Virus record (IMG/VR): IMGVR_UViG_3300022752_000023
Span: 1-64,000 of that record
From: a virus
DNA length: 64,000 bases
Reading direction: 5' to 3' (one strand)
Below the pieces are notes generated by a model that saw only the letters and a program-made list of their open reading frames with translations, was not told the DNA's origin and made no database searches. Made by a program: the position numbers and the translations under genes. The first letter of the stretch is position 1; every line of letters begins with the position of its first letter. Shown one piece after another: positions 28,538-36,496 of the stretch.

Positions 28538-29297
28538 CGTAATTTCTCCAATGCTGCCGTATCTCGACAACGCCTGATTTAATCTCGTTCTCTATCCACC
28601 ATTTGTATTCTGGATGCGCTGCCATTACAGCGTCATATGATCGCTGCTGCGCCTCGTAATCGAGCGCGGCTTTCCACAGGTAACGCTCTACAGCTTTTTC
28701 GCAGTTACGGCTGGCCGCGAACGCGTTTCGAAAAAACGGCGTGGCTGTAACGTAACTTTCGTCGCAGAGTACGTACAGCTCCTGCGCGGCTGTAGGCATT
28801 TTGTATATCGCGGTTGTCGCTATGCGTAGCTGCAGAGTCTCTGCCGCCACGTGAAAACGATTTTTGATTATCCGCGGCATATGCGTCACGTAATCGCGGT
28901 AAATCTCGGCGGATTTAGAGCTGTATAAAACAGACGGGCGCATTTCAGTTAAGCGCTGCTGTCCCGTCGAAATGCGCTCCGTGGCGAGCGCCGAGAAATG
29001 CGCATAAACCCAACCGCCAAGATCGGCGCCTGCGCGTTCGGCAGCGCGCAGGATTTTGCCCCAGACTGGCGTGTGTTTTACGCCAAAGTTATCTTTACCG
29101 CCGTCCCACATCGGGCGTCTTTTAATATGCGCCCGAGCTTCCCAATCGTGAACACGTTCGTTCAGATGGATGTACTGGTATCGAATGTAGGCGGCTTTTT
29201 GCGGCGGCGTAAGAAATTGATACCAGTCGACTGACAAAAGATCTAAATCATTCCCCGCTGTCAGTTCCGCGGGATCGCCAAGAGCGCTGCGCGTCAT
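28527..29297 (-). CDS. Hypothetical protein in the replication operon (start uncertain)
   Basis: ORF between the two helicases. Confidence 0.7.
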   Translation of the reverse strand: MTRSALGDPAELTAGNDLDLLSVDWYQFLTPPQKAAYIRYQYIHLNERVHDWEARAHIKRRPMWDGGKDNFGVKHTPVWGKILRAAERAGADLGGWVYAHFSALATERISTGQQRLTEMRPSVLYSSKSAEIYRDYVTHMPRIIKNRFHVAAETLQLRIATTAIYKMPTAAQELYVLCDESYVTATPFFRNAFAASRNCEKAVERYLWKAALDYEAQQRSYDAVMAAHPEYKWWIENEIKSGVVEIRQHWRNYDAE

Positions 29298-31803
29298 GCC
29301 AATTCTGCTCCCATCCGAGGAGTTTATAGCTGTTTCGTCGACCCAGACTCTTCCGGTAGAAGGTCGGGTCAAACGTGTCCATGCAATCCAGTACTTCGCC
29401 AAACTCTTTTCGTGTGCCGTCTGGGGCTGTGTAAATTCGGCTTACACGCCCCGGACCTTGCACATCGACAATATCGCTATCCCGGTCATCGGCGCGAACA
29501 AGAACATTTAACTGTTCGAAGTCAACGCCGGTGGCCCATACGTCCGTGGCGATTACGCGCTTGAGTTGTCCAGACTCGAACTGTGAACGCATATCGTATT
29601 TTTGTATGTCTGTGAGCGGTTTGTAGTCGGCGGGCAGCAAACCCTTTTTCCGATACCCCGCGCAGTCATACGGCGACATGTTTCCATAGACGAGACTGAA
29701 ATCAGGCAATTGCGCGCCGAGATGAACAGCATGTTCAATCGTCTCTACGAGGATCAAAATCTGATGCGATTCTGGATATCCCCGCACGGCTTCGGCGATG
29801 ATACGATTCCGCTCATGGTTTGTCCAGATGCCGTATCGCTTGCGCGCCACGCGATTTCCGTAGCGCTCCGCGGGGTTCGACCGCAGGCGCATCGGCAGCC
29901 AGTTGACCCGAACTGGCACGACCAGACCAAGCTCGACGGCCTGCTGATACGTCAGCTCGAATACCATCGGACCGAACATCGGCTCAAGCACGGCATGAGC
30001 GTTGTCCATACGCGCGTATGGCGTCGCGCTCAAACCGAAATTACGGCTTGTGCGATAGCGCGCGGCAAGAGCCGTGGAAAAGTTGAGCGTGGCAAGCTGG
30101 TGAACTTCGTCGGCAAACAGAAAATCTGCGTCGCCGTCTGAGTGCGCCAAGCTGCCGGCAGTAATCACCGTCACACGTTCCCACTGCTTCCACCCATCAC
30201 CAACGCGGCCGACCTTCGGCAACAGCCGTTTCAGACTGCGCACGATGCGATCAGCAACGTCAACTGACTTTGTTACTACGTGAATCTTGGCTGTCGGGAA
30301 CAGTAGGGCTGCGGCGCCAATCAGCGTTGTGTTATGCGTCACTGTGTAATTTGTTGTCAAATACAAACCGTCGTCAGCGGCGACTGAAATACACACACAC
30401 GGGAAACTTCCGGCCGGACGGATCGCTGTAATGGCTTTCGTTTTGCCTTGTTTTGTTTTCGCCCGCCACAACGAAGCCTTACGCGGCAGCCAGAACGGAT
30501 TTACTGGCAGATTCACGGCCACGCGGTAATACACTTTTCCGGGCTGTGCCGCATATTCCTGCGGCTTGACGCGCGTTACACCGCCCAAAGAACGCACAAG
30601 TTCACAAACATCTTCGGCTAATTGCTTTGACGCAACCGGGCCGAATTCAACGTGATACTGCTTCTTGCGCACGGTGCCGTCTGTGTCCATCAACCCGCGC
30701 AACAATTCTAGTCGCTGCTCGAAACTAGCATGCTTATACGCGGCCGGTATTTCTTTATCGTGTGATAGCACACACACACCAAGCGCGTCTAAAGCGCTTT
30801 TTAACGGATTCTCGCGTTTTTTTATTCCATGCGTAATACGCCAATCATATTGCGACACATATCGAACCGATAGGCCCAGCGGCTGCACAATGCTATCAAC
30901 GCGAGTCACAATTTCACTATCAGCAGAACTGAAGCGAATACTGCTTTGCGTAAGCCCACCATCGCCTAAAAGTACACCCAGCAAATACGGATCAACCGGC
31001 AAGACTCTTTGTTGAAAATGCACGGGCGCCGCTACAGGCACGAACCATTTTGCGTTGCCCTGATTGTCGTACAGATCGTGCATTAAATTTGCAATCTGAA
31101 CTGTTTTATAGGGCGTGTTACGACATTTCTGTGCTTTTGTTCTGACGTTCCACAGATGTTCTTGGCAGCAACGAACTTTAGACCCGTCGGAAAATTCGAC
31201 TTCCACGACTTCTTTAACGCCCTGCGGATAAACTCCGGTTACTTCTGTTGGATAACCGTTAGCGCCAATCACATAATCACCGATTTGAATAGCGCCGATC
31301 GGTACAGGTCCGATATCGGTATACACCGGCTCCGTAACTGGTTGCGCTTTGCCGAACCCCGTAACGGCTTTAATAATACCGCACGGAACTCGGGAAATTG
31401 TACGCAAGCATTCTTCTTGCCGAGCACGAAACGTGATTCGCCCGTCTAGGTTTTCCCACTGCGGCGTGAAGCAATCAGGGCGCTTTCGCGGGCCTGACCG
31501 GTCAACAAGCAGAGTGGGGCAGCCAAGCTTTTTCAGTCGATTCACCATACGGGCAAGATACCCGCTGAGCACGATTACATGCCCGTGCTCGACGCGGTGT
31601 AACTTGTATTCTTTCGTTTGAAAGAACATCCGCTGCCCGGTAATCGGATCTCGGCGAGCCTGCCCGTGAACCTGCTCGACATGAGAATAGCGCAGGTCGT
31701 GAGTGAGCCGTTTGATCAGCTCGTCATTTAAGGGCGCGTTATCTGCGCCGGTAAGCGTTAAAACGTTTCCAACACGTGTAATTGTAACGGGCTGGGCAAT
31801 CAT
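29248..31803 (-). CDS. Superfamily 2 (UvsW/XPB-like) helicase, intein-containing
   Basis: TGFGK|TT, ADEVH, GLSATP, ATGVD, QGPGRVSR. Confidence 0.9.
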   Translation of the reverse strand: MIAQPVTITRVGNVLTLTGADNAPLNDELIKRLTHDLRYSHVEQVHGQARRDPITGQRMFFQTKEYKLHRVEHGHVIVLSGYLARMVNRLKKLGCPTLLVDRSGPRKRPDCFTPQWENLDGRITFRARQEECLRTISRVPCGIIKAVTGFGKAQPVTEPVYTDIGPVPIGAIQIGDYVIGANGYPTEVTGVYPQGVKEVVEVEFSDGSKVRCCQEHLWNVRTKAQKCRNTPYKTVQIANLMHDLYDNQGNAKWFVPVAAPVHFQQRVLPVDPYLLGVLLGDGGLTQSSIRFSSADSEIVTRVDSIVQPLGLSVRYVSQYDWRITHGIKKRENPLKSALDALGVCVLSHDKEIPAAYKHASFEQRLELLRGLMDTDGTVRKKQYHVEFGPVASKQLAEDVCELVRSLGGVTRVKPQEYAAQPGKVYYRVAVNLPVNPFWLPRKASLWRAKTKQGKTKAITAIRPAGSFPCVCISVAADDGLYLTTNYTVTHNTTLIGAAALLFPTAKIHVVTKSVDVADRIVRSLKRLLPKVGRVGDGWKQWERVTVITAGSLAHSDGDADFLFADEVHQLATLNFSTALAARYRTSRNFGLSATPYARMDNAHAVLEPMFGPMVFELTYQQAVELGLVVPVRVNWLPMRLRSNPAERYGNRVARKRYGIWTNHERNRIIAEAVRGYPESHQILILVETIEHAVHLGAQLPDFSLVYGNMSPYDCAGYRKKGLLPADYKPLTDIQKYDMRSQFESGQLKRVIATDVWATGVDFEQLNVLVRADDRDSDIVDVQGPGRVSRIYTAPDGTRKEFGEVLDCMDTFDPTFYRKSLGRRNSYKLLGWEQNWHDAQRSWRSRGTDSGE
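30331..31347 (-). mobile_element. Intein (339 aa, Ala1, class 3-like) with LAGLIDADG homing endonuclease
   Basis: AQP...EHLW...LLGVLLGDG...LRGLMDTDG...CVCISV...VTHN|T; removing it restores Walker A GFGKTT. Confidence 0.92.
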
Positions 31804-35382: not shown

Positions 35383-36496
35383 CGTTAGGTTCTCCTGTCA
35401 TGTATTTTGAAAACTGTACATCAAGCTCTTTGTTTGCGTCTTCAGCTGCAAGCAACGCCGCAGCCAGCTTATAAGCGTCAGTGCCGGCGCCTAGTAAATC
35501 ACCGAGCGCCGACAGTAAATCATTTTTGGCAACATCACGTGTGCTCGCGCGTTTGTCGCCGTCGTCCTTGTTTGTCAGCGCCTCACAAAATACGTGGGCC
35601 GACTCGCCAAGCGCGGTGACGAGGCGGATGTACGCGTCAGGTAGCTGTTTGTTGAACTTGACGCGCACAATCGGCTTAGCAATCTCGGCAGGCAGCTCGG
35701 CAAACTCGCACATATCTTTGATGTCGCGCTCAAACTGCCCGGCACACAAGCTATCCAGCAACTCCTGCTCGCGCACGCTGTAGTTGATAAACCGGCGTGT
35801 CTTAAGCGGTACCGGCCAAAACTCAAAGCCGCCGTCGTGCGTGTCGTTGATTACAAAGAAAAACTTTGACGGATCTTCGCCGCAATCTTGCATGCAGATA
35901 GAACCGGGCGACAGCATTCGAATCGGCTTCCCCTGCGCGTTGGTGCTTTCCACGGTTTTAGTGACGTGAAAGTCGCCAGCCAACACGGTCTGAACATGAT
36001 GCACGTCAGTCAACTCGCATTCGGTGCGGCCGACGTTGCCCATGAAATCTTTCCAGACTTGATGCACGATTAAAATATCTGTGTCAGCCGGAACTTCTTT
36101 GAACGCGGTCTGAATCTCTCCGCGCGGAAGCCAGTCGAGCCCGTATACGCGAACGCCATTGATGGTCACAGTTTGTTTGTGAATGTGTCGTGACCATTTG
36201 TGTACGCTCAACCACGGCGCATTCCGATCATACTCGTGATTGCCTTGAATATAGTAAACATCCAAGTTTGCGACCTGCATCCGACTCAGTCCGTTGCACA
36301 GTTGCGCAATTGGTCGCGCGGAGTTGCTTTTCTTTTCCAAAACATCGCCGCCAAGAATCAGCGGCAGCCGATGTTCGACGCAGTAGTCAATAATCTGATT
36401 GAAGCTGTAATACGCGTCGCCATAAATGCCGGGACGCGTTGACCATGCGCCGTCTTCGAGATGCAGGTCGGCGGTAAAAACGAAAAGAGGTTTCAC
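35324..36496 (-). CDS. sbcD: SbcD/Mre11-like nuclease
   Basis: ADLH, GGD, GNHE, GDFH, SPGS. Confidence 0.92.
   Translation of the reverse strand: MKPLFVFTADLHLEDGAWSTRPGIYGDAYYSFNQIIDYCVEHRLPLILGGDVLEKKSNSARPIAQLCNGLSRMQVANLDVYYIQGNHEYDRNAPWLSVHKWSRHIHKQTVTINGVRVYGLDWLPRGEIQTAFKEVPADTDILIVHQVWKDFMGNVGRTECELTDVHHVQTVLAGDFHVTKTVESTNAQGKPIRMLSPGSICMQDCGEDPSKFFFVINDTHDGGFEFWPVPLKTRRFINYSVREQELLDSLCAGQFERDIKDMCEFAELPAEIAKPIVRVKFNKQLPDAYIRLVTALGESAHVFCEALTNKDDGDKRASTRDVAKNDLLSALGDLLGAGTDAYKLAAALLAAEDANKELDVQFSKYMTGEPNDAALATRSEELGTPPLSSV

Follow-up and report, generated by a model that had tools for sequence, protein, structure and literature searches.

In the first 64 kb of the 144,420-bp viral contig IMGVR_UViG_3300022752_000023 (IMG/VR; estimated to be 71% complete), a stretch of 64,000 nucleotides hereafter called the window, two adjacent minus-strand genes encode a 313-aa protein with a predicted TasR-like fold and a 165-aa protein with the predicted fold of a minimal Cas7/Csm3-type RAMP. 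These proteins are probably domesticated, non-catalytic, array-less relatives of TasR and of Cas7/Vipr-type RAMPs that are accessory to recombination-dependent replication. Both are now encoded by single-copy core genes of the recombination/replication module in a large group of ~160- to 225-kb uncultured phages. The two genes are as follows.

32304..33245, minus strand: predicted compact TasR-like protein P0001, 313 aa (AlphaFold2 [AF2] model, Foldseek, VIA-align, and NF052498 matches)
31805..32302, minus strand: predicted minimal Cas7/Csm3-type RAMP P0002, 165 aa (AF2 model, Foldseek, and VIA-align)

Fold and homology of the TasR-like protein

Neither protein had a match in Pfam, PHROGs, or PADLOC, and family profiles of both searched against PDB sequences gave chance matches only. 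In NCBIfam, residues 131 to 202 of the 313-aa protein weakly matched TIGR_Tas_endo (E = 0.019) and IS110 transposase (E = 0.074), with a TIGR_Tas_endo score of 14.9 to 15.4 bits that lies far below the curated cutoff of 100 bits. The family comprises 752 clusters at 50% identity (E ≤ 1e-3), nearly all ~310 aa in length. When 82 diverse members were scanned singly, TIGR_Tas_endo (NF052498) was matched by 54 (best, 2.1e-9) and IS110 by only 3.

The AF2 model of the 313-aa protein (pLDDT 95.8; pTM 0.92) comprises a RuvC-like N-domain (approximately residues 1 to 120) with β-β-β-α-β topology and a C-domain of the Nop/IS110-Tnp type. The ten best Foldseek matches in the PDB were to IS621, TasR, and ISCro4; the alignments span the entire protein, with probabilities of 0.92 to 0.98 for the IS110 members. 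With VIA-align, TasR (9mty_B) gave a Z score of 10.7 over 231 residues (positions 8 to 309), TasH gave 8.4 to 8.5 (residues 128 to 308), and IS621 gave 7.6. A search of 48,161 PDB representatives that was independent of Foldseek ranked TasR first and TasH second, and these were the sole chains with a Z score of at least 8. The Nop/IS110-like fold proposed for this protein in an initial annotation made from the DNA alone was thus confirmed by the Foldseek run and by the TIGR_Tas_endo matches. DUF4123, the label of the nearest named ESM Atlas clusters (0.92), was judged a chance match, as the fold and hidden Markov model (HMM) evidence point elsewhere.

The resemblance to TasR (TaTasR, PDB 9MTY; Faure et al.), the best structural match, thus covers the order of the RuvC-like and Nop-type domains, HMM-level homology in the Nop core, viral origin, and small size. 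Nearly invariant residues in that core are H150-P151, F158, D176-P177-R178-W179, and G197-L198. The IS110 recombinases (IS621, 8WT6/8WT9; ISCro4, 9T56) share the two-domain layout (Z = 6.6 to 7.6), account for most of the Foldseek top ten, and have Tnp/Nop motifs in common with the 313-aa protein (IP...HhH-like, D..RF/DPRW, and GLxP). Unlike them, it has no DEDD tetrad, no conserved catalytic Ser, no non-coding ends, and no bridge RNA, and it is not mobile. The Ser that follows GLxP in IS110 proteins is not conserved in the family: among 18 aligned members, the residue is Ser in 9 and Thr in 3, with K, N, G, C (twice), and W in the remainder.

The RuvC-like domain differs from that of an active nuclease at several positions. 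Within residues 1 to 120, no Asp or Glu is invariant among the 82 family members. In β1, the Asp is replaced by His (H13) in 60 of the 82 and by Thr, Tyr, or others elsewhere; at position 80, Glu occurs in 53 members and Gln in 22, and the homologue in locus L120 lacks the Glu and has Leu there. His at position 116 is kept in 77 members, and position 122 is Asp in 70 and Glu in 9. In the AF2 model, the RuvC-like domain is followed by two helices of 12 and 9 residues (positions 123 to 134 and 141 to 149), compared with ~30 and 27 residues for the coiled-coil helices of TaTasR (K109-D138 and A142-H168). Judged from secondary structure rather than superposed coordinates, the dimerization helices of TasR appear to be missing. 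The 313-aa protein is accordingly modeled as a catalytically eroded TasR-like fold that combines RuvC-like and Nop-type domains. A Tyr/His processing dyad, for which the C-terminal A-[YF]-x-x-[HY] helix was a candidate, was rejected, as many members have Phe in place of Tyr and the motif is part of a helix rather than of a loop.

It is also conceivable, if improbable, that the 313-aa protein is a non-canonical Holliday-junction or flap resolvase with an altered site (e.g., His13/Glu80/His116/Asp122) and that the RAMP serves as its single-stranded DNA (ssDNA)-binding mediator. The N-domain by itself resembles YqgF, RuvX, and RuvC, including poxvirus and phage RuvC resolvases (Z = 5 to 7), and H116 and D122 are well conserved. 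The gene lies within a recombination module with SbcCD and UvsX, and the contig yielded neither an endonuclease VII nor a classical SSB, though it lacks 29% of the genome, where a resolvase or SSB may lie. Against such an activity, the metal-binding Asp of β1 is absent, many members have Gln at position 80 or lack the residue, the best match of the whole protein is TasR and no resolvase, and RAMPs are not known as ssDNA mediators.

Fold of the RAMP

The AF2 model of the 165-aa protein (pLDDT 86.3) shows one RRM, a long β-hairpin thumb, and, after helix 2 and before the last strand, a glycine-rich loop; its only helices are the two RRM helices (residues 42 to 56 and 121 to 133). A Foldseek search of the PDB returned 87 chains at E ≤ 1e-3, and all of those listed are CRISPR RAMPs, with Csm3, Cmr4, type VII Cas7, and Cas7-11 as leaders and type I Cascade chains also present. 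With VIA-align, Csm3 (8do6_E) reached a Z score of 11.6 over 156 of the 165 residues, and 200 chains scored at least 8. Among viral structures (BFVD), the best match was a phage “Cas system-associated RAMP” (3.5e-7), and in the ESM Atlas the protein falls only in viral “hypothetical” clusters. We take the modeled protein to be a minimal Cas7/Csm3-type RAMP, in agreement with the RAMP fold named by the initial annotation.

Identity within the family is 66 to 97% among the 120 clusters listed, and G132, Y134, G136, S138, P139, F140, G148, and F150 are invariant. With the type III and type VII Cas7 proteins (Csm3, Cmr4, type VII Cas7, and Cas7-11 domains), the model shares the RRM core, the thumb hairpin, and the glycine-rich loop (Z = 9 to 11.6). 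In contrast to those proteins, it has 165 rather than ~200 to 300 residues, falls below the threshold of the Pfam RAMPs family, and is accompanied by no CRISPR array, Cas10, Cas5, Cas6, or Cas1. In a sequence alignment, the Csm3-type catalytic Asp site after β1 reads FDRDP or FERDP in the main clade and MPR--TP and FPRGATP in L028 and L029, so this site may not be kept in distant members.

Gene order and neighboring genes

Nearly all genes in the window lie on the minus strand. The order on this strand is sbcD, sbcC, the 313-aa gene, the 165-aa gene, and an SF2 (superfamily 2) helicase gene, with g291 and genes for a DnaB-like helicase, a primase, and a PolA-like polymerase downstream. The sbcD and sbcC genes overlap by 59 nt, the 3′ end of sbcC overlaps the start of the 313-aa gene by 17 nt, and gaps of 1 nt separate the 313-aa gene from the 165-aa gene and the latter from the helicase gene. 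The coupled operon that had been proposed upstream of DnaB, primase, and PolA therefore stands as described. Matches to consensus promoters and terminators inside the block were not above shuffled expectation, which is compatible with, and no proof of, a single transcription unit. The neighboring genes of the module are as follows.

35324..36496, minus strand: sbcD (Mre11-like nuclease subunit), 390 aa; Pfam Metallophos (7e-6), phrog_100 SbcD-like (3.9e-9)
33229..35382, minus strand: sbcC (Rad50-like ATPase), 717 aa; SMC_N (6e-17), AAA_23, SbcC_Walker_B, phrog_77 (2.2e-35)
29248..31803, minus strand: XPB-like SF2 helicase, 851 aa with an intein and ~512 aa without it; ResIII and Helicase_C, phrog_16 DNA helicase
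30331..31347, minus strand: LAGLIDADG intein in the helicase ATPase domain, approximately residues 153 to 491; LAGLIDADG_3 (1.8e-9), Hom_end, Hint
28527..29402, minus strand: g291, conserved gene between helicase and DnaB with an uncertain start codon; present in 27 of 29 loci
26861..28570, minus strand: DnaB-like replicative helicase; DnaB_C, phrog_19 (7e-16)
25779..26864, minus strand: DnaG-type primase; phrog_47 (1e-40), DNAG_N, Toprim
22611..25772, minus strand: PolA-type DNA polymerase, 1053 aa; position kept in relatives, and a relative’s homologue has UDG, DNA_pol_A_exo1, and DNA_pol_A
18368..19738, minus strand: UvsX/RecA-like recombinase of the same module; PF00154 (28.5 bits, above the cutoff), phrog_97 UvsX-like (1.4e-30)

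The first two genes encode SbcCD, as a metallophosphoesterase subunit adjoins an SMC-like ATPase with Walker A and B motifs. The helicase starts at the ATG at 31803, not at the TTG at 31911, and its nearest solved sequences are those of XPBII (6p4f/5tnu; 5e-8). Helicases of the relatives align only to residues 1 to 152 and 492 to 851, with the exception of those of L017 and L021, which carry the intein; its presence here and in these two loci and its lack in most relatives therefore indicate a recent mobile insertion. No match to g291 was found in Pfam, PHROG, or PDB. This gene and the 3′ part of the helicase gene seemingly share ~155 nt, and the same was seen in relatives by tblastn from residue 1; the overlap is either genuine or the result of a misplaced g291 start codon. 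Library searches gave no identity for g204.

The recombination-dependent replication module of phage T4 comprises gp46/47, UvsX, and UvsW. The module described here is similar in that an SbcCD-type nuclease, a UvsX-like recombinase, and an SF2 helicase are encoded with replisome genes. It differs in having a PolA-type polymerase and an XPB-like SF2 helicase, and T4 is without Nop- or RAMP-fold proteins.

Conservation of the gene pair

No match to the region, as DNA or as protein, was found among GenBank phages (50,697 records; blastn and tblastn), and it therefore represents an uncultured phage lineage. Relatives were recovered from IMG/VR as contigs of ~160 to 225 kb, several of which are 100% complete with terminal repeats. 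A total of 29 loci found with the 313-aa protein, two of them at 29 to 34% identity, were compared in full. In 29 of 29, every gene within the recovered flanks follows the order SbcD, SbcC, Tas-like protein, RAMP, helicase, g291, DnaB, primase, and PolA, and the arrangement is therefore not due to chance. Synteny in loci L033 to L121 was inspected by hand for selected loci only. In the divergent loci L065, L066, and L120, this slot is likewise occupied by a homologue of the RAMP; hhalign recognized the RAMP with 99.9 to 100% probability in L065 and L066 and the Tas-like protein with 100% probability in L120. All 44 loci found in a search with the RAMP alignment belong to the same phage group, and each of five records inspected has exactly one Tas-like gene, adjoining the RAMP gene. 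The prediction that the pairing would be conserved in relatives was therefore upheld.

Within the close clade, the RAMP is conserved as well as the helicase and PolA and better than SbcC, SbcD, and DnaB; identity across loci is 62 to 97% for the RAMP compared with 51 to 92% for SbcC. This pattern is typical of a core function rather than of a gene in an arms race, and both genes are single-copy core genes under strong purifying selection. A role in competition with other phages, one of those suggested in the initial annotation, fits such deep conservation less well than a housekeeping role does. The same holds for a counter-defense decoy, in which the pair would sequester crRNA or tigRNA of the host or poison its effector complexes. 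Solo Cas-like proteins encoded by phages can function as anti-CRISPRs, and both folds derive from RNA-guided defense or conflict systems. Placement in a core replication operon, coupling, single copy number, and strong purifying selection are nonetheless the opposite of what is seen in fast-evolving accessory anti-defense genes; we regard a decoy as highly improbable.

Two variations around the pair were also seen. In L016 (8930-10018) and L021 (8916-10656), 1.1 to 1.7 kb of extra DNA lies between the Tas-like and RAMP genes, which breaks the tight coupling. In L031, which belongs to a RAMP-less lineage, a 68-aa open reading frame (ORF) in the RAMP slot (2560-2766) has a weak, partial match to the GGDEF (palm) domain (E = 7e-4).

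Search for guide RNAs, arrays, and mobile-element features

Tandem Repeats Finder (TRF) detected only coding repeats with periods of 9, 18, and 27 in the whole 144 kb, with no TIGR or CRISPR array and no period-5 tract. A search for GGY/NN tracts (seven GGYNN units with ≤2 mismatches) gave 0 matches in the contig, and the same was true of five 100%-complete relatives. The contig has no Cas1, no match to PF03787 (RAMPs), and no second Tas-like gene. Around the pair there is no intergenic space, as the neighboring genes overlap or lie 1 nt apart. Rfam matches in the contig were limited to three tRNAs, one group I intron, and one DUF3800-VIII RNA. No transposon features (non-coding ends or a bridge RNA) were found at the 313-aa gene, the start of which overlaps sbcC, and the gene is immobile: it is present as a single copy with the same neighbors in 29 of 29 loci. 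The reported lack of cas1, an array, and transposon ends was thus confirmed, for cas1 and arrays across the 144-kb contig. Guide repeats of the GGY-NN and TIGR-like kinds named in the initial annotation, and of the CRISPR kind, were not found in the contig, and no VIPR-type tract was present in the five complete relatives.

VIPR consists of a minimal phage RAMP (Vipr) and vrRNAs of 9 to 16 YNNGG repeats; it acts without cutting, and some types carry helicase or nuclease accessory genes (bioRxiv 10.64898/2026.04.26.720920 and 10.64898/2026.04.26.720927). The 165-aa protein, like Vipr, is a small single-RRM phage RAMP found outside CRISPR loci. It differs in that there is no GGY/NN vrRNA in the contig or the five complete relatives (a tract of a related consensus may exist), no flanking intergenic space, and no α-bundle domain beside the thumb in the model, and its gene has a core replication-operon place rather than lying in a small accessory locus. 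It therefore resembles Vipr and Cas7 by fold and fails the VIPR features that were tested, as no GGYNN run, period-5 tract, or α-bundle domain was seen.

The 313-aa family fits, by description, the array-less compact branch of TasR reported by Xu et al. (bioRxiv 10.64898/2026.09.09.750476), with which it shares the lack of a coiled coil and array and a densely packed genome. Xu et al. left the guide source of this branch as a question, and their preprint makes no mention of a RAMP, helicase, or SbcCD context. The 313-aa protein differs from TasR in the lack of a TIGR array, conserved RuvC carboxylates, and coiled-coil helices, in its score of ~15 compared with 100 bits, and in being encoded by a fixed core gene between sbcC and the RAMP and helicase genes, a context found in neither TIGR-Tas paper. 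Neither the VIPR paper nor the TIGR-Tas papers mention the other fold or this operon context. As the initial annotation supposed, no paper was found in which both folds are paired; from their titles and abstracts, the few papers in the searched library that name both Cas7 and TasR concern other topics. The array-less compact TasR branch itself is already in the preprint. The loci described here add genomic context and candidate partners to the question that Xu et al. left.

One conserved structured RNA was found 5.2 kb upstream of the pair. It is ~165 nt long (38467-38631, minus strand) and lies directly 5′ of tRNA-Gln. Compensatory changes occur in 17 of 25 predicted pairs across 16 phages, and two hairpin loops are able to pair with segments farther downstream, a sign of pseudoknots. 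A tRNA or tRNA-like gene comes next in every case, so that tRNA processing would free the 3′ end of the RNA. The RNA is single-copy, has no Rfam match and no k-turn, box C/D, or GGY/NN features, and folds as a single sequence no better than shuffles. There was one 14-nt match to it elsewhere in the genome, compared with 0.17 expected, and it was not found in the flanks of more distant loci that keep the pair. It was rejected as a guide and is not counted as part of the system.

Two side observations concern these scans. Repeats with periods of 9, 18, 27, and 54 on the minus strand (window positions 1-227, L073:19440-19570, and L074:1274-2034) encode collagen-like Gly-X-Y tracts and probably belong to fiber or tail genes. 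The DUF3800-VIII RNA motif lies in an intergenic gap on the minus strand (contig 81213-81288; L073:17313-17388) and scored 44.8 bits compared with a gathering threshold of 40.2.

Probable role in recombination-dependent replication

The pair has a recombination setting, with SbcCD and a UvsX-like recombinase in the same module. Through translational coupling, the two proteins would be co-produced with SbcCD and the XPB-like helicase, and together they probably form a nucleic-acid-binding accessory complex in recombination-dependent replication. Such a complex could recognize or stabilize a branched or hybrid intermediate (an R-loop, a D-loop, or a processed DNA end), which the XPB-like helicase would remodel and on which SbcCD and UvsX would act. 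The pair itself would cut no DNA, and no array would reprogram it. Any RNA involved would be fixed or a transcript rather than come from a spacer array. The RNA-guided recombination envisaged in the initial annotation is not supported, as nothing shows an RNA guide, the RuvC-like catalytic residues are not conserved, and the coiled coil appears to be missing.

Several points weigh against this accessory role. Both folds have so far been known almost only as guide-RNA binders, and the elements that contact RNA are kept: the glycine-rich loop and thumb of the RAMP, and the HP...F, DPRW, and GLxP motifs of the Nop core, which are nearly invariant. A dedicated guide RNA is therefore possible. Stem-loop tigRNA units lack sequence conservation and may be intragenic or distant; none were seen with the scans used, which such unconserved units could escape, and the contig is only 71% complete. 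In two contigs the helicase directly follows the Tas-like gene and the RAMP is missing, and in L030 and L031 the RAMP slot holds two unrelated small ORFs without RAMP homology. Because the RAMP is missing from its slot in some lineages, the two proteins may not be obligate partners. The putative link of the pair to SbcCD and the helicase is drawn from gene order and coupling.

An alternative is a working RNA-guided DNA-targeting system whose guide escaped detection and could be a single fixed RNA, intragenic, or encoded elsewhere. In such a system, the Tas-like protein would cap or hold an RNA that the RAMP coats, and the helicase and SbcCD would unwind and cut the DNA of competing phages or the host or would open the phage’s own origin. 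Besides the RNA-binding folds and retained contact elements, precedents include dead TasR and TasA, which are known RNA-guided DNA binders, and VIPR types with one vrRNA and with accessory genes for a helicase or nuclease. For array-less compact TasR, Xu et al. (bioRxiv 10.64898/2026.09.09.750476) also left another guide RNA source possible. The conserved structured RNA lies on the same strand as the pair, but it lacks k-turn, box C/D, and GGY/NN features, does not fold better than shuffles, is missing near distant pair loci, and has only the one 14-nt match elsewhere in the genome. There is no array of any known type, the coiled coil required for the dual-spacer Tas dimer appears to be missing, and the extreme conservation and fixed place in a replication operon are unlike those of inter-phage conflict systems. 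Taken together, an active guided system is possible but rather doubtful.

A related and unlikely arrangement would be a hybrid ribonucleoprotein (RNP) of the Tas-like protein and the mini-Cas7, which would form R-loops at specific phage sites that the XPB-like helicase, SbcCD, and UvsX turn into replication forks or breaks. Here RAMP subunits would coat an RNA that is held by the Nop-type cap; this RNA could be fixed, supplied in trans, or derived from a phage transcript. If such an RNP exists, it would represent an RNA-guided start of recombination-dependent replication and a housekeeping use of guide-RNA machinery.

TIGR-Tas, IS110, CRISPR, and VIPR are known as programmable, conflict-related systems; here relatives from two such lineages occur side by side as array-less, apparently nuclease-dead, and strongly conserved core genes. 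If the pair is guide-independent, then guide-RNA-binding folds have been recruited for DNA metabolism, which bears on the origin and reuse of such folds. If it is instead a fixed-guide RNP in replication, then RNA-guided DNA recognition would have a new role in biology.

Group I intron

At the far end of the window, a group I intron (Rfam, 67 bits) lies at 61753-62535 on the minus strand and contains an internal ORF of ~186 aa (61777-62337). The intron is flanked by ORFs at 62523-63473 and 61180-61605, possibly both exons of one split gene.

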